Shown here in pieces: positions 24,026 through 31,263 of a DNA stretch of 64,000 bases. The notes beneath the pieces are model-generated. The model searched no databases and was not told the DNA's origin. It worked only from the letters and a program-made list of their open reading frames with translations. The position numbers and the translations under genes were made by a program. Every line of letters starts with the position of its first letter. Position 1 is the stretch's first letter. This DNA is from an uncultured Gammaproteobacteria bacterium (lineage in GTDB: Bacteria; Patescibacteriota; Microgenomatia; PFEM01; JAPLYW01): assembly GCA_965230945.1 (NCBI GenBank), contig OZ246397.1, forward strand, positions 539,925-603,924, read 5' to 3'.

Positions 24026-24883
24026 TTGAAGTTTAAATTTTTTATGAAAAGAATTGTTATTCATATTAATCCAGATTTGGATGCTGTTGCTTCAGTTTGG
24101 CTTATCAAAAGATTTTTGCCTCGTTGGGAAAAAGCAGAAATAGGTTTCTGTCAGGCAGAAACAACTTTTGATGGGAAGCCAGTAGATAGTGATCCTGATA
24201 TTTTACATCTTGATGTTGGTTTAGGTAAACTTGATCATCATCAAACTGATTGTTTTACTTCGGCAGTTAAACTCACTTTAGATTTCATCTTAGAAAAAAG
24301 AAAAGGACAAGAGTTGAGCCCTTTAGATTTAGAGGCTTTAGAGCTCATGGTAGAAACGATTAATGAAATTGATAATGCGCGAGATTTGAATTGGCCGGAA
24401 GTTAAAAAAGAGCGTTATGATTTTTATCTCCATTCTATTTTAAGTGGTTTAAGAAGAATGGGGAAAACTGATATTGAACTAGTTGAATACGGTTTTTTAG
24501 GGCTAAATGCTGTTTTTAAGAATCTTAAAGCAGGGATAAAAGCCAAAGAAGAAATAAAAAAGGGGATTGAATTTCAGACTCCTTGGGGAAAGGCAATTGC
24601 CTTGGAGACCGGTAATGAATTATTTTTATGGGAAAGTGAAAAAGCTGGTTATTATTTAGTGGTTAAAAAGGATCCTGACGATGGTGATGTTAGAATTTAT
24701 GCTCGTTATGATAGTGATGTTGATTTGAAAAATGTTTATCAAAAATTTAAAGAGATGGATAAAGAATCTGATTGGTTTTTACACGCTTCCGGTAAGTTGT
24801 TATTAAATGGATCTCGGGTTAAAAAGATGAAACCAACAAAGTTAAGTTTAGAGCAAGTAATTGGGGTGTTGAAAAATGGTTGA
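24026..24883 (+). CDS. DHH-family phosphoesterase (NrnA-like nanoRNase/pAp phosphatase)
   Basis: IHINPDLDAVAS (motif I) and GKLDHHQTD (DHH motif). The likely ATG is at 24044; the track start at 24026 is a TTG. Confidence 0.6.
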   Translation: MKFKFFMKRIVIHINPDLDAVASVWLIKRFLPRWEKAEIGFCQAETTFDGKPVDSDPDILHLDVGLGKLDHHQTDCFTSAVKLTLDFILEKRKGQELSPLDLEALELMVETINEIDNARDLNWPEVKKERYDFYLHSILSGLRRMGKTDIELVEYGFLGLNAVFKNLKAGIKAKEEIKKGIEFQTPWGKAIALETGNELFLWESEKAGYYLVVKKDPDDGDVRIYARYDSDVDLKNVYQKFKEMDKESDWFLHASGKLLLNGSRVKKMKPTKLSLEQVIGVLKNG

Positions 24884-25199
24884 TTGTATTTTTTGTCAAA
24901 TTGCTCAAAAAAAGATACCAGCAGAGATTGTTTATGAAGATAAAAAGATCATTGCTTTTAATGATGTTAACCCTAAAGCACCTGTCCATATCTTAATTAT
25001 TCCTAAGAAACATATTAAAGATTTTATTAGTTCTGGAAAATTCTTTCCTAAGATTTTAAAAGTTGCTAAAGACTTAATTAAAAAGTATAATTTAGATAGG
25101 AATGGTTATAGATTAGTAGTCAATGGCAGGAGTGCAGCGCTTGTCGATCATTTACATTTACATCTTTTAGGAAAAATAACTGTTGATAGGAATGTTTAG
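24876..25199 (+). CDS. HIT-family (histidine triad) nucleotide hydrolase
   Basis: 107 aa; CIFCQI N-terminus; HLHLHLLG histidine triad at the C-terminus. Confidence 0.8.
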   Translation: MVDCIFCQIAQKKIPAEIVYEDKKIIAFNDVNPKAPVHILIIPKKHIKDFISSGKFFPKILKVAKDLIKKYNLDRNGYRLVVNGRSAALVDHLHLHLLGKITVDRNV

Positions 25200-25236: not shown

Positions 25237-25307
25237 CGGGGCGTAGCTCAAAATAGAGCAGCGTACTTGGTGTACGATGTATAGTGGTTTAAATCCATTC
25301 GCCCCGA
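25237..25307 (+). tRNA. tRNA-Pro(UGG)-like element with atypical D- and T-loops, 36 nt upstream of the proS start; either a divergent tRNA or a tRNA-mimic operator
   Basis: Hand-folded cloverleaf. Acceptor CGGGGCG/CGCCCCG is 7/7 Watson-Crick. U8 A9. D-stem GCTC/GAGC with a 6-nt D-loop AAAATA (no G18G19). Anticodon stem GCGTA/TACGA. Loop CUUGGUG (U33, anticodon UGG, U at position 37). T-stem AGTGG/CCATT with loop TTTAAAT (no C56). Discriminator A; no encoded CCA. Confidence 0.45.
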
Positions 25308-25343
25308 CAAATTTAAAGAGATTAAGAAATAATATGATTTTCT

Positions 25344-26792
25344 ATGAATGAAAAAGAGAAGGTTAATTTTTCTTCTAAAGAATTAGGAGTTAAGGTGGAA
25401 TCAGATAAAATTTCTGAGTGGTATAATAAAATAATTAAAGAGGCTGATTTGATTGATCAAGGCCCAGCTAAAGGGACGATGGTTTTTCGTCCTTATGGTT
25501 ATGCTCTTTGGAAAGGAGTTCAAAAGAGTCTTGGGTTTAAAATAGAAAAGAATGGGGTTGAAGATGCTTATTTTCCTGCTATAATTCCAGAAAAACTTCT
25601 AGTTAAAGAAAAAGATCATATTGAAGGTTTTTCTCCGGAATTTTTACGTGTTCGAGGTAGAAGTGGAGAAATTGGAGTATTGAGGCCAACTTCCGAAGCT
25701 GTAATGTATCCATTATTTAAGAAGTGGATTCAATCTTACAGAGATTTACCCCTTAAAGTAAACCAGTGGTGTAATGTTTTTAGAGATGAGTTAAGAACGT
25801 ATGCTTTAATACGCACTTCTGAATTTCTTTGGCAGGAGGGTCATTGCGTGTATGCTTCAGCAAAGGAAAACGAAGAAGCAGTGATGGATTTTTTAAATAT
25901 GTATAAGAATTTTTTTCGTAATACTCTTGCTGTATCTCCTATTTTTGGGAAAAAAAGCGAAAAGGAAAAATTTGCAGGAGCTTTATATACTACAACTGGC
26001 GAAGCAGTTTTACCAGGAGGGAAAGCTCTTCAAGTTTGTACTTCTCATAATTTAGGGACAAATTTTGCAGAAGCCTTTGATATACAATTTTTAGGTAAAG
26101 ATGGCAAACAACATCACCCATATCAGACAAGTTGGGGTTTAAGCTGGCGGGTTATTGCCGCGATGATTATGAGTCACGGTGATAAAAAAGGGCTTATTTT
26201 TCCACCAGAAATGGCCCCTACGCAAGTAATAATTATACCTATTAAAGGTTCATCTGATGAAGTAGTTATGGAAGCAGCAAAATCTATAAAAGAAAGATTG
26301 TCTGATTTGAGAGTTGATATAGATAAGTCAGATGCAAGGCCAGGAGCTCGTTATAATTATTATGAACTTAGAGGAGTACCTTTAAGGATTGAAATTGGCG
26401 CCCGTGATATTCATAATAATCAGATAATAGTTGCAAATCGATTAACTGGTGATAAAAAAGCTCTGCCTTTAGGTGGTCAGCTTAGAAAAGGCATACAGTT
26501 GTCATTAACATCAATACAAGAGTCTTTATTAAAGAAATCTGAAAGTTTAGTTAAAGAAAGTACCAAAGATGTAAAGACATGGGAAGAATTTAAAGAGATT
26601 CTTAATAAAAATGGAGGTTTTCTGAGAACTTATCACTGTGGAAATAGAGATTGTGAACAACAAATTCAGGATGAAACAAAAGCAACATTAAGATGTATCC
26701 CTTTCGGTTATGAAAAATCAGAGGGAAAATGTGTTAGATGCGGAAAACCATCTAATTATGGTCAAAAAGTACTTTTTGCTAAGGCCTATTAG
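25344..26792 (+). CDS. proS: Prolyl-tRNA synthetase, archaeal/eukaryal-type (class IIa) with a C-terminal zinc-binding domain
   Basis: Motif 1 region FRPYGYALW, motif 2 FRDELRTYALIRTSEF, motif 3 GLSWRVIAAMIMSHGDKKG, anticodon-binding domain, C-terminal CGNRDC...CVRCGK. Confidence 0.85.
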   Translation: MNEKEKVNFSSKELGVKVESDKISEWYNKIIKEADLIDQGPAKGTMVFRPYGYALWKGVQKSLGFKIEKNGVEDAYFPAIIPEKLLVKEKDHIEGFSPEFLRVRGRSGEIGVLRPTSEAVMYPLFKKWIQSYRDLPLKVNQWCNVFRDELRTYALIRTSEFLWQEGHCVYASAKENEEAVMDFLNMYKNFFRNTLAVSPIFGKKSEKEKFAGALYTTTGEAVLPGGKALQVCTSHNLGTNFAEAFDIQFLGKDGKQHHPYQTSWGLSWRVIAAMIMSHGDKKGLIFPPEMAPTQVIIIPIKGSSDEVVMEAAKSIKERLSDLRVDIDKSDARPGARYNYYELRGVPLRIEIGARDIHNNQIIVANRLTGDKKALPLGGQLRKGIQLSLTSIQESLLKKSESLVKESTKDVKTWEEFKEILNKNGGFLRTYHCGNRDCEQQIQDETKATLRCIPFGYEKSEGKCVRCGKPSNYGQKVLFAKAY

Positions 26793-26800
26793 TATTTTCT

Positions 26801-27571
26801 ATGTTTATGGAATGTAGTAGTAAATTAACATTGTCAAATATTCCTTCCGATTATCCACTTCCTAACCTTTATTATTTCTCTTCCAAATTTTTAACAGAAA
26901 TTCGTAAACAGGTGACAGGTGCTGTTTCAATTTTAAATCAAAATGGTTTTGAAGAATGTCATTTCCCTTTTTTAGTTCCGAGAAGCCTTTTATTGTATTA
27001 TAAGAACTTAATATCTTTGGAAGATTTTATAAAAGTATATTCAGGGAAAGATAAGCGATCATATGCTTATTTGAGACCAGATGGTGTGTTTAGTCAAGGG
27101 ATCACTTTAGCAAAAGAAATGATTAAGAGTTATCGTAATTTACCCTTGAAATTATTCGAAGTATCCCCAAGCTATAAAAGATTAAAGAACAAAACCAAAG
27201 GGAATGTCTTTACTTCTCCAGAAGAGTCTTTTTCTATACAAGGTGGAGTATTTATTGAGGATAAAGACGAAAATGAATTTCTTCAGACGATTATTTCTAG
27301 AATTCTAAATAACTTCTCAATACCGTATATAGCCAAAAATAATAAATTATGTAAATATGGGGGAATAAATTATAGCACTCTTTTTAGTGACAATGAGATA
27401 AATCTCGCTAAAATTTGTGTTTTTGATCAAGAAGTTACTCGGGAAGCAAACATTTATTTTTTTAATAAAGAGGGAAGGAGATCTTTTCCATACATGTATA
27501 GCTTTAGCTTATCTCAAAACATTTTTTTAATTAGTCTTTTAAAAAATGAAAGAATAGGATTAGAAAAGTGA
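26801..27571 (+). CDS. ProRS-like paralog truncated to the N-terminal catalytic region (256 aa); no anticodon-binding or Zn domain
   Basis: YAYLRPDGVFSQGITLAKEMIKSYRNLPLKLFEVSPSYK parallels the proS segment [37 protein letters not shown]; very AT-rich. Confidence 0.55.
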   Translation: MFMECSSKLTLSNIPSDYPLPNLYYFSSKFLTEIRKQVTGAVSILNQNGFEECHFPFLVPRSLLLYYKNLISLEDFIKVYSGKDKRSYAYLRPDGVFSQGITLAKEMIKSYRNLPLKLFEVSPSYKRLKNKTKGNVFTSPEESFSIQGGVFIEDKDENEFLQTIISRILNNFSIPYIAKNNKLCKYGGINYSTLFSDNEINLAKICVFDQEVTREANIYFFNKEGRRSFPYMYSFSLSQNIFLISLLKNERIGLEK

Positions 27572-28995
27572 ATAACATATCAGAAGAGAAATTGATAGAT
27601 TGGCTGAAGTTTTATGTTAACTTTGGTGATATAGTAAATGATGATTTTCCTACTAAAGGAGCTTGTTCTTGGTACCCTTATGGATATTCTTTAATGAAGA
27701 ATATCCTTCATTTAGCATCAAATATTTTAATTAAGAAAGCTAAGTTTAAAGAGATTGTTTTACCATCTTTTGTTCATGGTGAAGATTTCATGAAAGAATG
27801 CAAAAATATAAAAGATTTTAGTGAACGTGTATATTGGTCGCCATTATATAGAAAAGACGATCTACATGTAGTAACTCCTACAATTGAAGCACAGTTAGGT
27901 GCTCTTTATAATAAATGGCTACAAGCAAATAAAAAACTTCCGTTTAAGTATTTTACGATAAGGGGAGTAGGTCGTTATGAAACTGGAAGGACAATTCCTT
28001 TATGGAAGGAACGTAACGTTTGGCCTTTTTTTGAAGGGTTAACGGTTCATAGTTCTTCATCTGATTTTTTAGCTACCATAAAACAACAAATAAATTTTAT
28101 GGAAGTTTTTTTTGAAGAACTTGGAATTCCTGTTTTAATCCTTGAAAGACCTAAGATTAATTCTCGTTTGTGTGAATATTCTGAGCGAAGAATAGAAGCT
28201 GTTACGATAACTAAAGATAAGAGGGTTGTAATACTAGCAAATATATATGATTTAGGAGAAATATTTAGTAGAGTATACGATATCTTTTATATCGTTAAGA
28301 ATACTAAATATTATGCCTTAACTTCTGCGATAGGTTTATCTGGTAGGGTGTTGGCTACCTTGTTGACTATAAATGGCGATAAAGATGGTTTTATTCTTTC
28401 TCCAATGATTGCTCCAATTAAGTTAGCGATATTACCAATTTATAATAAACCAGCTTTTACTAAGCTAGCAAAAAAGATAGAAGTTTATTTAAGTAAAAAA
28501 GGTATAGTTTCAAAGAATTTTCCGGCTGTGTCTTCGTTGGGAGAGAGGAGAAGAAAAGTAACAGCAATGGGGATACCTTTTTTAATAGAGATTGGATCAA
28601 ATGAAATAAAAAGCTCGTCAGTATTAATAAAAGAACGTGTTCTTACTCATAATTCTACAGAATGTGAAATAAAAGAAATACCTTATATTATTAAGAAACG
28701 AGGCAAAATAATGAATAAGTTTATTAAGCAGAAAGCATTTAAAGAATTCAATTTACTTACTAAGTCTGTTAAGTTAAAGAAAAATTTTCTTTATTGCCTT
28801 AAAGATGAGATTTTAACAGAATCATTTTTTTGTAATAATCCAAATTGTTATAATAAAATGGCAGAATTGTCAAATAGAGAAATAATTGGTCGTAATTATA
28901 AAGCTAAAATAAATAAAAAATCTAAATGTATAGTTTGTGGAAAAACAGCATCTCAAGGTATTTATTTTGGTATTAAATGGAAGGGAGAAAAGTGA
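27568..28995 (+). CDS. Full-length divergent ProRS-family paralog (475 aa: catalytic, anticodon-binding and Zn-ribbon domains)
   Basis: PTKGACSWYPYGYSLMK, VTPTIEAQLGALYNKWLQANKKLPFKYFTIRGVGRYETGR (motif 2 altered), GLSGRVLATLLTINGDKDG (motif 3), SPMIAPIKLAILPI, C-terminal CNNPNC...CIVCGK. Confidence 0.6.
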   Translation: MNNISEEKLIDWLKFYVNFGDIVNDDFPTKGACSWYPYGYSLMKNILHLASNILIKKAKFKEIVLPSFVHGEDFMKECKNIKDFSERVYWSPLYRKDDLHVVTPTIEAQLGALYNKWLQANKKLPFKYFTIRGVGRYETGRTIPLWKERNVWPFFEGLTVHSSSSDFLATIKQQINFMEVFFEELGIPVLILERPKINSRLCEYSERRIEAVTITKDKRVVILANIYDLGEIFSRVYDIFYIVKNTKYYALTSAIGLSGRVLATLLTINGDKDGFILSPMIAPIKLAILPIYNKPAFTKLAKKIEVYLSKKGIVSKNFPAVSSLGERRRKVTAMGIPFLIEIGSNEIKSSSVLIKERVLTHNSTECEIKEIPYIIKKRGKIMNKFIKQKAFKEFNLLTKSVKLKKNFLYCLKDEILTESFFCNNPNCYNKMAELSNREIIGRNYKAKINKKSKCIVCGKTASQGIYFGIKWKGEK

Positions 28996-28997
28996 TT

Positions 28998-29912
28998 ATG
29001 GATTTTTTAAAAAAGGGAGACACTATTGGGGTGGTTGCTCCTGGCTCGCCAGTGCCTAAAAAAAATATAAAAAAGGGAGTTAATGTTCTTAGTAATATGG
29101 GCTTTAATGTAAAATTAGGTAAGCATATTTTTAGTATTACTGGCTATACGGCAGGAATTGCAAAAGATCGTGCTAATGATATTAATAGGTTTTTTTCTGA
29201 TTCTCAGATTAAAGCGATAATTGCTGCTCGTGGTGGTTATAATTGCAATCAGATCTTACCATTTTTAGATTATGGACTTATTAAAAAAAACCCAAAGATT
29301 TTCTTAGGTCTTAGTGATGTAACTGCAGTGTTAAATGCTATTGTTTTGAAATCGAATGTTATAACATTTCATGGCCCAGTTCTTTTAATGATAGGGGGTG
29401 GAAGAGATGGTAAAGTATTCTCTAAGTATTCCAAAGAAAATTTTGAAAAAATACTTATGAATGAAAAGAAAAGGTTTATTAATGTAGTTAATGCCTTTGA
29501 TAATTGGATTGTTTTAAATAAAGGAAAAGCTGTAGGCAAACTTTTTGGCGGGAACCTCTCTTCTTTAATAAGTATTATTGGTACATCATATGAACCAAAT
29601 TGGAAAAATGCGATTCTAATGTGGGAAACGCTGGAAGAAAAATTAGAAATGATAGATCAGATGTTAACACATCTGAGATTAGCTGGAATTTTTGATAAAA
29701 TTAATGGTATGATGGTAGGTAAGTTTGTTGATACTAAACAGGGAAGAGATACAGAGATTATTAAAATGATTTTAGAACAATGCAGGGGATATGATTTTCC
29801 GATAATTTATGGGGTTGATTTTGGCCATACTAACGAAAATTTAATATTACCTATAGGTGGGGAAATTAGTTTTAATACAGAAGAAGAATTTCTTAAGATT
29901 ATTAAATATTAA
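28998..29912 (+). CDS. Peptidase S66 family (LD-carboxypeptidase LdcA / microcin-C immunity MccF-like serine hydrolase)
   Basis: IGVVAPGSPV, nucleophile motif LGLSDVTAV, C-terminal GVDFGHT...PIGGE His motif. An alternative ATG at 28977 overlaps the upstream stop. Confidence 0.7.
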   Translation: MDFLKKGDTIGVVAPGSPVPKKNIKKGVNVLSNMGFNVKLGKHIFSITGYTAGIAKDRANDINRFFSDSQIKAIIAARGGYNCNQILPFLDYGLIKKNPKIFLGLSDVTAVLNAIVLKSNVITFHGPVLLMIGGGRDGKVFSKYSKENFEKILMNEKKRFINVVNAFDNWIVLNKGKAVGKLFGGNLSSLISIIGTSYEPNWKNAILMWETLEEKLEMIDQMLTHLRLAGIFDKINGMMVGKFVDTKQGRDTEIIKMILEQCRGYDFPIIYGVDFGHTNENLILPIGGEISFNTEEEFLKIIKY

Positions 29913-29923
29913 ATTAGAAATTT

Positions 29924-31057
29924 ATGGGGCCTTATCAGGCGAAGCCAGGCGGTGTTATTTCTTATTTAGGCAATAAGATTTATCCTCCAGTTGAGGATGT
30001 ATTAGCTGTTTCTTGGCCACCAAAAGATTTAGTAGACAGAGTTGGATCTATTTATCGAGATAAGAAGTGGTACCACCTGCATAAAATTGATGCCTCAATT
30101 TTTACTGCTACGACACAATTCTTCCAAAGTATAAATGCTGATTGGGTTAATCTACCTCTTACCACTATGATGATTTCTTCTCCTGGTGAAGTTTATGCTG
30201 GACAAAGACTAAATTACACAACAGATACTTTACCTATGGAAATTCCTAATTGGTTTCATACTGGTAATAGAGTGTTTCTTTCAGAATCTTCACAGTTTTA
30301 TCTAGAATTAAGATTAATAATTGATAAGCTGGATAAAGTTTTTTCGATTTATAATTCTTTTAGGAAGGAAAAAGCTGATGCTACTCATTTATCAGAATTC
30401 CAACATGTTGAGTTTGAAGGACATGTTAATTTCAAAAATAACATAAATACTTTTATCAATTTGATTAATTATATTTTAAATTTTCTTTTACAAAATAACG
30501 AAGATAATTTATCTTTTTTTCTTGAAGATCAAGATATAAATGAATTATCTCGAAGCATGAAAAAGATTTTTAAGGTTCCGTTTGTCGAAATTTTAAAAGT
30601 TCTTTTTAAGGAAACTGGAAATAATAAATATAAAGAATTTTCAATGAAGAATTTTGGGTCGTGGGAAGAAATTTTTATTACTCAGATTTACGGCGGTAAT
30701 GTGTTAGCTCTTAATTTCCCTATGTTGCAGATCCCTTTTTATCATGAAATAAGTAAGAAAAAAGTTGGGGGTGTTCCTGTAGCTGAAAATGCAGATTTAA
30801 TACTTCAAGGATATAGAGAAACTGTTGGGAGTGGATTAAGAATTACAGATCCAAAGGCTTTGGCAGAAAAAGCAAAAATTTTTAATCTACCTATAGATGA
30901 CTATAAACCTTACCTTGAGACACGTAAGATGAAGAAATATAAAACATCGGCTGGTTTCGGTTTAGGTTGGCAAAGATTTACGCAATGGATTTTAAAATTA
31001 CCATATATTTGGGAAACAACCCCAACTCCTCGTGGACACACAAAACCAAGGCTTTAA
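29924..31057 (+). CDS. Standalone class IIb aaRS catalytic core (AsnA / AsnRS-AspRS-like); no anticodon-binding domain
   Basis: Motif 2 FSIYNSFRKEKADATHLSEFQHVEFE, motif 3 SAGFGLGWQRF, C-terminal IWETTPTPR (compare AsnRS IRDVIPFPR). Confidence 0.6.
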   Translation: MGPYQAKPGGVISYLGNKIYPPVEDVLAVSWPPKDLVDRVGSIYRDKKWYHLHKIDASIFTATTQFFQSINADWVNLPLTTMMISSPGEVYAGQRLNYTTDTLPMEIPNWFHTGNRVFLSESSQFYLELRLIIDKLDKVFSIYNSFRKEKADATHLSEFQHVEFEGHVNFKNNINTFINLINYILNFLLQNNEDNLSFFLEDQDINELSRSMKKIFKVPFVEILKVLFKETGNNKYKEFSMKNFGSWEEIFITQIYGGNVLALNFPMLQIPFYHEISKKKVGGVPVAENADLILQGYRETVGSGLRITDPKALAEKAKIFNLPIDDYKPYLETRKMKKYKTSAGFGLGWQRFTQWILKLPYIWETTPTPRGHTKPRL

Positions 31058-31107
31058 TTAAAAACAACATTTTTTATTACTTGATAATTTACAGAATATA
31101 ATCGATA

Positions 31108-31263
31108 ATAAAAAAAGAGCTTTTAGGGAAAATAGTTTTAAAAATTAAAGAAATTGCTAAAGAGAAAAAAATAGATAAAGGCTACAAGGTGCAAATTAAC
31201 TGCGGAAGAAAGGCGGGTCAAATAGTACCTCATTTGCATTTTCATTTGCTCGCTGGTTTTTAA
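31108..31263 (+). pseudogene. 3' fragment of a second HIT-family gene (about 51 codons, no start codon)
   Basis: In-frame translation IKKELLGKIVLKIKEIAKEKKIDKGYKVQINCGRKAGQIVPHLHFHLLAGF followed by a stop. The HIT C-terminal block and histidine triad are present, the N-terminal nucleotide-binding half is absent, and a stop lies immediately upstream at 31105-31107. Confidence 0.55.

Follow-up and report, generated by a model that had tools for sequence, protein, structure and literature searches.

A conserved pair of ProRS-derived proteins, one apparently intact and one with a destroyed ATP site, and its possible likeness to the ascamycin synthetases

What role might be played by two additional descendants of prolyl-tRNA synthetase (ProRS) encoded directly behind the housekeeping gene of a bacterium of the candidate phyla radiation (CPR)? 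The question is raised by a stretch of 64,000 nucleotides of contig OZ246397.1 (positions 539,925 to 603,924 of the forward strand, assembly GCA_965230945.1), hereafter the window. The housekeeping gene itself, proS (25344..26792, + strand), encodes a bona fide E-type ProRS: it scores 526.4 bits on TIGR00408, whose equivalog cutoff for E-type ProRS is 437 bits, contains the three Pfam ProRS domains and the terminal Tyr, and retains every residue of the proline pocket. It is followed by open reading frames ORF2 (26801..27571, + strand, 256 amino acids) and ORF3 (27568..28995, + strand, 475 amino acids), located exactly where, and on the strand where, an earlier reading of this DNA (the original prediction) had placed them. 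The stop of ORF2 and the start of ORF3 share the 4 nt GTGA, as had been reported, and the noted AT bias is reproduced, with a GC content of 0.29-0.30 across 27-29 kb against 0.33-0.37 nearby.

The original prediction took the two ORFs for tandem, divergent duplicates of proS serving either self-resistance or non-translational aminoacylation. Its general theme is backed by the gene context, while the premise of recent duplication turns out to be wrong. We propose, with a probability of roughly 0.4, that ORF2 and ORF3 are the halves of a single ProRS-derived system analogous to the AcmD/AcmF proteins of ascamycin biosynthesis, and not a spare ProRS accompanied by a broken copy. The AcmD/AcmF model would thereby reconcile the resistance and the non-translational readings. 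By its overall kind, as far as the analogy carries, the system is a variant of the ascamycin synthetase-paralogue logic built on a ProRS scaffold.

Anatomy and age of ORF2 and ORF3

ORF3 carries the three domains attributed to it at the outset: the class II core, the HGTP anticodon-binding domain and the ProRS C-terminal (Zn) domain, all recognised by Pfam. Its architecture is that of the E-type, with the C-terminal Zn domain and without the insertion domain. The AlphaFold (AF2) model, with a predicted local distance difference test (pLDDT) score of 86.7, is superposed by Foldseek over its full length on archaeal and eukaryotic ProRS with template modelling (TM) scores of 0.84-0.86. The TIGR00408 score of 207.8 bits falls below the 437-bit cutoff, so that ORF3 fails membership in canonical E-type ProRS, and its relatives are labelled at NCBI as 'His/Gly/Thr/Pro-type tRNA ligase C-terminal domain-containing protein'. 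The family shows little or no variation at the motif 2 Arg and Glu and the motif 3 Arg (R136, E138 and R260). The string VGRYETGR, on which the claim of an altered motif 2 was founded, is present, but the claim itself does not stand: the Arg and Glu of fRxE are kept, and the loop resembles the FRYETKHT of archaeal ProRS. Decay into recent inactivated duplicates with broken motifs is likewise not what is observed, the motifs of ORF3 being intact.

The proline pocket was mapped, by alignment only, by placing the residues of the human L-Pro cavity (E1123, F1167, W1169, E1171, H1173, F1216, H1242, T1276 and R1278; PMC9974123) on the family alignments. The ORF3 family retains E1123, W1169, E1171, T1276 (as Ser) and R1278, which are invariant or nearly so; the catalytic contacts and those to the alpha-amino group do not vary. 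H1242 is replaced by Tyr in 16/16 sequences and W1273 by Ile, Phe or Leu; F1167 is lost, its place being taken by Asn, Val, Ser or Asp. The position of H1173 is occupied by Leu in eight sequences, His in five and Phe in three, with His kept in the deeper branches, and the alignment column of F1216 is ambiguous. At the C-terminus, a conserved G-x-K-x-x-(E/D)-K (KWKGEK in the window copy) replaces the terminal Tyr, a residue reported to contact and stabilise the active site in almost all E-type ProRS (PMC11229370). This tail and the signatures TIEAQ, PLWKER-VWPF-E, Y-x-x-RR-x-E and (I/V)YDLG are constant from CPR to actinomycetes, whereas canonical ProRS reaching similar scores display TSE, H-x-LG and a terminal Tyr (Phe in one case). 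TIEAQ, IYDLG and the C-terminal GxKxx(E/D)K provide a simple handle for genome mining. Judged by its residues and domains, ORF3 is catalytically intact, possessing all that should be needed to form an aminoacyl-adenylate and to hold a substrate of the tRNA(Pro) type.

ORF2 gives a weak Pfam match to the class II core only and scores 24.7 bits on TIGR00408. Its AlphaFold model (pLDDT 77.3) aligns with ProRS catalytic domains over 232-248 columns in Foldseek. The protein had been described as an N-terminal stub diverging after motif 2; it spans instead the whole ProRS catalytic domain, ending right after the motif-3 helix, and is devoid of the anticodon-binding and Zn domains. Both ORF2 and ORF3 are ProRS-derived, and assignment to another synthetase family finds no place. 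The ORF2 family has replaced the motif-2 Arg R1152 by Lys, Gly or Thr, the motif-2 Glu E1154 by Val, Thr, Ile or Phe, the motif-3 Arg R1278 by Asn or Asp, and E1123 by Phe, Cys or Tyr. Since the residues of the adenosine triphosphate (ATP) site and E1123 are lost, no standard binding of ATP or of the alpha-amino group is expected. Other positions are kept across 23 sequences from three phyla, without exception in motif 1 (S-[YW]-[KR]-x-L-P) and at E141, and almost without exception at S238, at Q239 and at position 220, which is aromatic. Motif 1 forms the dimer interface of class II synthetases.

The two families are old. Archaeal ProRS obtain 243-274 bits from the hidden Markov model (HMM) of the ORF3 family, compared with 143-179 bits for the products of the adjacent CPR proS genes; members of the family share a mean identity of 20.6% with CPR proS and form a separate deep clade in a neighbour-joining tree. 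The ORF2 HMM gives 34-42 bits to canonical ProRS and at most 12 bits to ORF3. These scores and the tree rule out a recent tandem duplication of proS, and point to old separate families of which that of ORF3 stands closer to archaeal ProRS than to its neighbour. Because the ORF2 HMM barely scores ORF3, the two appear to have branched off ProRS separately, although a faster-evolving ORF3 line could also produce such a pattern. A word-indexed search of 5.8 billion proteins returned about 30 relatives of ORF3 and 21 of ORF2, and an exhaustive profile search with a signature check among 1.84 billion representatives yielded ~15 ORF3 clusters at 50% identity. The ORF3 members belong to Woesebacteria-type CPR metagenome bins, Myxococcus (including M. 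xanthus strains), Streptosporangium roseum and a Kitasatospora. The distribution and depth of divergence indicate that ORF3 represents a rare, deep and old family, and that the pair is ancient.

Estimates of the ratio of non-synonymous to synonymous substitution rates (dN/dS) were taken between the window and locus L007, the least saturated pair, every other pair being near synonymous-site saturation. They amount to 0.136 for proS, 0.196 for ORF2 and 0.140 for ORF3, and to 0.249 and 0.126 for two downstream genes described below, an S66 peptidase and an AsnRS-like core. The values indicate purifying selection on both ORF2 and ORF3. ORF2 stands directly upstream of ORF3 in nearly every locus, the exceptions being found among non-CPR loci, and the two frames overlap by ATGA or GTGA in 11 loci and by 11-32 nt elsewhere. 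The gene arrangement shows the two to be coupled in translation, as far as overlap reveals it, and co-inherited in three phyla. In two metagenomic loci the frames are broken: ORF3 is split into two reading frames in L018 (3059-4476), and ORF2 and ORF3 are each split into two in L020 (437-1939). The splits could reflect pseudogenisation in some populations or errors of metagenome assembly.

An atypical tRNA linked to the pair

The window also encodes an atypical tRNA(Pro)-like gene with the anticodon UGG upstream of proS (25237..25308, + strand). What had been noticed as a tRNA-like element at 25237 is a genuine tRNA, scoring 46.2 bits on the Rfam tRNA model against a gathering score of 29. This score is reached only when the short region is searched alone; ARAGORN and a whole-window Rfam scan at the gathering threshold both missed the gene, which calls for caution with automated tRNA counts in such genomes. 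A covariance model built from the window gene and the seven orthologues found first assigns it 93.6 bits, a value that is partly circular because the gene and its orthologues went into the model. Orthologues are present in 10 other CPR loci, making 11 CPR loci in all. Their cloverleaf is supported by covariation: 96.4% of the cells are paired, nine pairs are altered on both sides, and the slid-partner controls collapse.

All copies possess C1:G72 and A73, which are bacterial proline identity elements (PMC11229370), together with G35 and G36. All copies also share a 6-nt D-loop without G18G19 and an anticodon loop of the form C32-(U/C)33-N34-G35-G36-U37-G38, where the first anticodon base varies, giving UGG or AGG, and G35, G36, U37 and G38 are invariant. 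The T-loop is degenerate, C56 or A58 often being altered. Other tRNAs on the same or sister contigs are canonical. The modified nucleotide m1G37 goes with every tRNAPro isoacceptor throughout evolution (PMC8384417); U37 is therefore a real anomaly. Taken by its sequence features, the linked tRNA looks poorly suited to the ribosome.

In four CPR loci (L003, L016, L027 and L028) the anticodon is AGG, the tRNA lies directly 5' of ORF2, and proS is found on the opposite strand. Because these copies precede ORF2 where proS is elsewhere, the tRNA travels with ORF2 and ORF3 and not with proS. Genomes with a linked AGG copy would need another tRNAPro for CCA and CCG, and the linked tRNA can therefore be argued to be an extra one. 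No copy was detected by the covariance model in the Myxococcus loci or in L002, L010, L017, L018, L019 and L026, even with filters off in the case of L010, L018 and L026; the actinomycete loci L030 and L031 lay outside the tRNA scan. The linked copy is therefore not required by the system.

Proposed function and its rivals

A precedent for the association of an intact with an ATP-dead synthetase paralogue is found in the ascamycin producer Streptomyces sp. 80H647. AcmD, an extra alanyl-tRNA synthetase (AlaRS), provides the Ala-tRNA and withstands the product better than the housekeeping AlaRS does. AcmF, a truncated AlaRS-like protein without ATP-binding and activation residues, passes alanine from Ala-tRNA to the nitrogen of a nucleoside 5'-O-sulfamate, producing a mimic of alanyl-adenosine monophosphate (Ala-AMP), and AcmE hydrolyses the alanyl group back off (PMC12945691). 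ORF3 as the intact extra synthetase, ORF2 as the truncated ATP-dead paralogue and the downstream S66 serine peptidase (28977..29912, + strand) as the hydrolase present a similar set. The likeness is one of analogy and not of homology: AcmD and AcmF derive from AlaRS of class IIc, and the pair described here from E-type ProRS. AcmF has a tRNA-recognition domain, unlike ORF2, and AcmE is an alpha/beta hydrolase where an S66 peptidase is found here. The ORF2 and ORF3 genes, on the other hand, overlap and probably encode a heterodimer, and the CPR loci add the linked atypical tRNA. Genes of the sulfamate pathway are not visible in the window.

The S66 product (Pfam Peptidase_S66 and S66C) scores 137-147 bits to Lmo1638 and to the MccF proteins of B. 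anthracis and E. coli, and 70-100 bits to murein LD-carboxypeptidases. It contains the catalytic Ser (GLSDVT) and His (FGH) motifs and, by these scores, is closest to the MccF clade, nearer to it than to LdcA. E. coli MccF, which cleaves aminoacyl-nucleotides, stacks the nucleobase on W186. An S66 gene occurs near ORF3 in the CPR loci with the gene order of the window, in Myxococcus, in L019 and L026, in S. roseum and in Kitasatospora. The following gene (29924..31057, + strand, Pfam tRNA-synt_2) encodes a class IIb catalytic core resembling asparaginyl-tRNA synthetase (AsnRS) and AsnA, without an anticodon-binding domain; it scores 132 bits for asnS (cutoff 414) and 108 bits for AsnA (cutoff 389). 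Its motifs 2 and 3 are intact in all phyla, showing a core that is, by its motifs, competent to form an adenylate. The AsnRS-like core belongs to a CPR-wide family with >466 matches, shares a cluster with ORF2 and ORF3 in Myxococcus, S. roseum and Kitasatospora, and adjoins S66 and a UbiE-type methyltransferase even where ORF2 and ORF3 are absent, as in Absconditicoccus praedator. A HIT-family hydrolase gene (24876..25199, + strand; Pfam HIT/DcpS_C, E about 1e-18) precedes the tRNA. HIT genes adjoin proS, ORF2 and ORF3 in three CPR gene orders (the window with L007 and L008; L012-L014; L016, L027 and L028), and we infer that they belong to the system.

Three enzymes are known to give immunity to microcin-C-type aminoacyl-nucleotides, namely MccF (S66), MccE2 (GNAT) and MccH (HIT), the last of them acting on phosphoramidate aminoacyl-nucleotides (PMC8323819); the S66, GNAT and HIT genes around the pair belong to the same broad families. 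Some microcin-C-type clusters also contain an extra asnS-type gene, so that the recurrence of MccF-clade S66, Acetyltransf_3 GNAT, HIT and an AsnRS-type gene recalls their content (PMC8323819). The AsnRS-like gene described here differs from the extra asnS in having no anticodon-binding domain, and neither an MccA precursor nor an MccB ThiF-like adenylyltransferase was seen.

By analogy with ascamycin, ORF3 would charge tRNA(Pro) with proline or a close analogue, the linked atypical tRNA serving as its substrate in many CPR genomes, and might also act as an inhibitor-insensitive copy of ProRS. ORF2, probably as the heterodimeric partner of ORF3, would take the prolyl group off the tRNA and attach it to a non-ribosomal acceptor amine, probably of a nucleotide, creating a mimic of prolyl-AMP (Pro-AMP). 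S66, together with HIT or GNAT where these are present, would hydrolyse or neutralise aminoacyl-nucleotide species. The most speculative element is the acceptor, which might be adenosine 5'-phosphoramidate or 5'-sulfamate, perhaps made with the participation of the AsnRS-like core and S66. A scheme for the four genes can be drawn in which the AsnRS-like core makes an N-P linked isoasparaginyl-adenylate from Asn and ATP (MccB forms an N-P bond from Asn and ATP), S66 unmasks the adenosine phosphoramidate, and ORF3 with ORF2 prolylates it into a phosmidosine-like Pro-AMP mimic. The methyltransferase and P450 of the actinomycete and Myxococcus clusters could tailor the product. Phosmidosine 'resembles proline-AMP' (PMC11229370), and no paper on its biosynthesis was found in the literature searched. 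Its producer is Streptomyces durhamensis. It is a doubtful extension of the model that a minimal, tRNA-dependent pathway, made of synthetase paralogues and leading to a Pro-AMP-mimic nucleotide toxin of the phosmidosine type, is common to ultra-small CPR bacteria, Myxococcus predators and certain actinomycetes. If it is, CPR modules with HisRS-like or ThrRS-like cores would make mimics of other aminoacyl-adenylates, and the pathways would constitute a modular, previously unrecognised family of synthetase-inhibitor pathways.

Several observations weigh against the AcmD/AcmF-like interpretation. ORF2 has no tRNA-recognition domain, whereas AcmF retains one; the amino-acid pocket of ORF3 appears modestly changed, and ORF3 could simply be a ProRS. 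The tRNA is missing in L010, L018, L002 and L017 and in the non-CPR loci scanned. L019 and L026 hold ORF3 and S66 without ORF2, and L012-L014, L016, L027, L028 and L017 hold ORF2 and ORF3 without a nearby S66 or AsnRS-like core. Genes of cell-wall type (MurT-like ligase, FemAB, Ddl-like ATP-grasp and Aminotran_4) occur among the neighbours. No genes for a nucleoside sulfamate or phosphoramidate acceptor are recognisable within the window; the candidates we can name, the AsnRS-like core with S66, the APS kinase of Myxococcus and the PNP_UDP_1 gene of L017, are guesses, as is the role given to the AsnRS-like core. A toxin pathway would be unexpected in a CPR genome whose longest recorded contig measures 615 kb. 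Enzyme activity, the ORF2-ORF3 complex and the product are all things that we infer from anatomy and context.

Should the AcmD/AcmF-like interpretation hold, it would add, from sequence alone, a second scaffold on which aminoacyl-adenylate-mimic antibiotics are built by an intact and an ATP-dead synthetase paralogue, this one ProRS-based and equipped with an atypical tRNA of its own. Phosmidosine and other prolyl-nucleotide antibiotics would gain a candidate gene cluster, and genome-reduced CPR bacteria would be shown to carry such chemistry, with a bearing on their interactions with hosts.

The pair might alternatively form a pure resistance or back-up island without any biosynthesis, ORF3 being a drug-insensitive ProRS that goes on charging tRNAPro while a prolyl-adenylate mimic of foreign origin inhibits the housekeeping enzyme, the drug being destroyed or modified by S66, HIT and GNAT, and ORF2 acting as no more than a structural partner or decoy. 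ORF3 does retain its catalytic residues, its anticodon-binding and Zn domains and most residues of the proline pocket, it lies beside proS in most CPR loci, and together with S66 it forms a two-gene unit flanked by insertion sequences (IS) in L019 and L026. S66, GNAT and HIT are known immunity families, and extra synthetase copies confer immunity elsewhere (PMC8323819): AcmD is itself a resistant copy (PMC12945691), and the E-type ProRS2 of Bacillus has a raised tolerance of halofuginone (PMC11229370). This ProRS2, the AbmK SerRS2, the AgnB2 LeuRS and IleRS2 all resemble ORF3 as second full-length synthetases that lie beside, or add to, a housekeeping one of the same specificity class (PMC8323819, PMC11229370). 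Such self-resistance copies, however, are canonical and stand alone, whereas ORF3 lies far below the equivalog cutoff, has lost the terminal Tyr, has diverged beyond need (21% identity to proS) and is accompanied by a dead partner that looks obligate. The island would leave several things unexplained: the conservation, under purifying selection, of an ATP-dead ORF2; an AsnRS-like core competent for adenylation yet without a tRNA-binding domain; the atypical tRNA; and the occurrence of methyltransferase, P450 and ABC exporter in one operon. We regard it as unlikely. If resistance alone were to hold, the ORF3 family would still represent a naturally divergent ProRS whose remodelled pocket and C-terminus inform resistance to ProRS inhibitors. 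Rather more improbable is a part in the tailoring of cell-wall peptides, with ORF3 loading a non-ribosomal tRNA, ORF2 or a Fem-type enzyme extending a peptidoglycan precursor, the AsnRS-like core adding or amidating Asp or Asn, and S66 trimming the stem peptide as an LD-carboxypeptidase. S66 belongs to the LD-carboxypeptidase family, and GT2 and GlyRS or AlaRS genes join the cell-wall-type neighbours listed above (FemAB in L029). The ProRSx/tRNAProX operon adjoins murG (PMC10404621), and dedicated non-proteogenic tRNAs with altered D and T arms serve peptidoglycan bridges, as does the staphylococcal tRNAGly that binds EF-Tu and the ribosome poorly and feeds a non-ribosomal transferase (PMC7826273). 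That extra tRNA resembles the linked one in its abnormal D and T arms, but it receives its amino acid from the one housekeeping GlyRS and serves Fem transferases, whereas a dedicated synthetase-like pair is linked to the tRNA here. The scores of S66 moreover favour MccF over LdcA, the genes of cell-wall type accompany the pair inconstantly, and P450, methyltransferase, Acetyltransf_3 GNAT, HIT, radical SAM and exporter genes suit secondary metabolism better. It also counts against a cell-wall role that we know of no peptidoglycan bridge with proline as a residue.

A further possibility is a second translational ProRS/tRNA pair that inserts proline or a near analogue at CCN codons by way of the atypical tRNA, either a stress isoform or a mistranslation or recoding device of the kind suggested by ProRSx/tRNAProX. 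In Streptomyces and Kitasatospora, a distinct full-length or truncated ProRS isoform likewise stands beside a non-canonical C1:G72 tRNA, in an operon that also holds non-translation genes (PMC10404621, PMC9437257). The layout is thus shared; the first anticodon base of the linked tRNA varies between UGG and AGG around the invariant G35, G36, U37 and G38, and the Kitasatospora cluster includes a YbaK-type tRNAPro editing protein. Membership nevertheless fails for both components. ProRSx is of the P-type, while ORF3 derives from the E-type with archaeal ProRS as nearest relatives, and the truncated ProRSx form keeps only the anticodon-binding domain where ORF2 keeps only the catalytic one. tRNAProX has Ala, Asn or Thr anticodons with A33/A34; the linked tRNA has UGG or AGG, U or C at position 33, U37 and no G18G19. 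With proline's own anticodons nothing would be recoded, and a tRNA with U37 in place of G37 (PMC8384417), without G18G19 and with a degenerate T-loop is unlikely to be used efficiently by the ribosome. No linked tRNA was found in the non-CPR loci scanned, and ORF2, S66 and the AsnRS-like core would stay unexplained. Translation by a second pair appears very improbable. The original prediction also mentioned amino acid:[carrier protein] ligases, an idea that can be set aside: those enzymes are without tRNA-binding domains and are encoded beside a carrier gene, whereas ORF3 retains the anticodon-binding and Zn domains, and no carrier-protein gene was seen in the loci examined. A 90-amino-acid Myxococcus neighbour considered for that part was rejected, as it bears a lipoprotein-type signal (MRTGIMVGLLAVGLMTGCGG) and has no Pfam match. 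The simplest alternative regards ORF2 as a pseudogene fragment and ORF3 as a functionless drifting copy, and could appeal to the lost catalytic arginines of ORF2, to the scores of both ORFs below the curated ProRS cutoffs and to the split ORFs of L018 and L020. It is contradicted by dN/dS values of 0.14-0.20, similar to that of proS, by sharp signatures kept from CPR to actinomycetes and by conserved stop/start coupling; dN/dS, the ORF3 signatures and the invariant positions of ORF2 effectively refute it.

Gene orders across three phyla

The operon call for the window rests on gene spacing, because a promoter and terminator scan gave a signal no better than shuffled sequence. PADLOC defence models had zero matches among four window proteins. 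The order tRNA, proS, ORF2, ORF3, S66, AsnRS-like core is common to the window and the CPR loci L001, L007, L008 and L009. The CPR loci with AGG anticodons (L003, L016, L027, L028) have tRNA, ORF2 and ORF3 in succession, with HIT as well as proS on the opposite strand. In the CPR locus L002, ORF2 and ORF3 follow the AsnRS-like core, a GT2 gene and an amidohydrolase-like gene, and GlyRS is on the opposite strand; the amidohydrolase-like gene (328 amino acids) had been considered as a divergent S66 and was rejected, being Amidohydro_2-like and homologous to a gene of L017. The IS-rich contigs of L019 and L026 (46% GC) carry ORF3 and S66 only, without ORF2.

Outside CPR, the Myxococcus loci (L004, L006) have the order ORF2, S66, ORF3, amidohydrolase-like gene and Acetyltransf_3 GNAT, with the AsnRS-like core on the opposite strand (the M. 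xanthus copy is in the BHS07_17325 region); their surroundings include APS kinase, a CmlA-like oxygenase, a thioesterase, a phosphopantetheinyl transferase (PPTase), a B12-binding radical SAM protein and a methyltransferase. In Streptosporangium roseum (L030; CP001814.1, about 4.804-4.817 Mb), the AsnRS-like core, a methyltransferase, ORF2, ORF3, P450 and S66 are followed by an ABC exporter. The ORF2 of this cluster is a gene of 241 amino acids that matches the ORF2 HMM with E 1.6e-16, the methyltransferase is 44% identical to that of Myxococcus, and the opposite strand encodes, upstream of the cluster, a MurT-like ligase as well as a fused alpha-beta GlyRS. In Kitasatospora (L031), the AsnRS-like core, ORF2, ORF3, GNAT and S66 are followed by P450, a full AlaRS and a YbaK/ProX-type tRNA-editing protein.

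Full-length synthetases of other specificities adjoin the module in L002 (6215-7636, - strand), L017 (9350-10687, + strand), L030 (2502-5576, - strand) and L031 (17085-20503, + strand). GlyRS is found beside it three times, in two unrelated GlyRS architectures; in Kitasatospora the neighbour is AlaRS, with the editing protein next to it. In one CPR sub-clade, ORF3 is followed on its 3' side by a radical SAM gene, a small ORF of 126-137 amino acids and a B12-binding radical SAM gene (L010, 8799-11619; L011, 2365-5206; L018, 4519-7339; L029, 12234-15081). The B12-binding radical SAM gene of Myxococcus has no BLAST similarity to this CPR counterpart. A different duo, a SufS-family cysteine-desulfurase-like gene and a weak ThrRS-like core of ~350 amino acids, is encoded in L012 (235-2473), L014 (1589-3827) and L017 (4877-7142), immediately 5' of the block formed by tRNA, proS, ORF2 and ORF3 or of ORF2/ORF3 alone. 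L017 also possesses a PNP_UDP_1 nucleoside phosphorylase gene and an Amidohydro_2-like gene. The FemAB family comprises aminoacyl-tRNA-dependent peptidoglycan transferases, and its member in L029 (1481-2536) lies ~6 kb upstream of tRNA, proS, ORF2 and ORF3, with DNA-repair genes in between.

The AsnRS-like core, the UbiE-type methyltransferase and S66 form a unit without ORF2 and ORF3 in L023 (6001-9039), L024 (6001-10320) and L025 (6001-9025). In L023 and L025 the unit is accompanied by a weak HisRS/HisZ-like protein of 383-398 amino acids, the two copies being 33% identical to each other. In L012 and L014, an intact HIT gene stands directly 3' of ORF3 and is followed by YqeY-ybeY-dnaX, as in the window. 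This order suggests that, in the lineage of the window, S66 and the AsnRS-like gene were inserted into the interval separating ORF3 from HIT. The window itself preserves a HIT relic at about 31100-31260 (+ strand), flanked by the AsnRS-like gene and rpsU. It corresponds to the C-terminal half of the gene (...GYKVQINCGRKAGQIVPHLHFHLLAGF, ending in a stop), has no usable start and is preceded by a stop codon.

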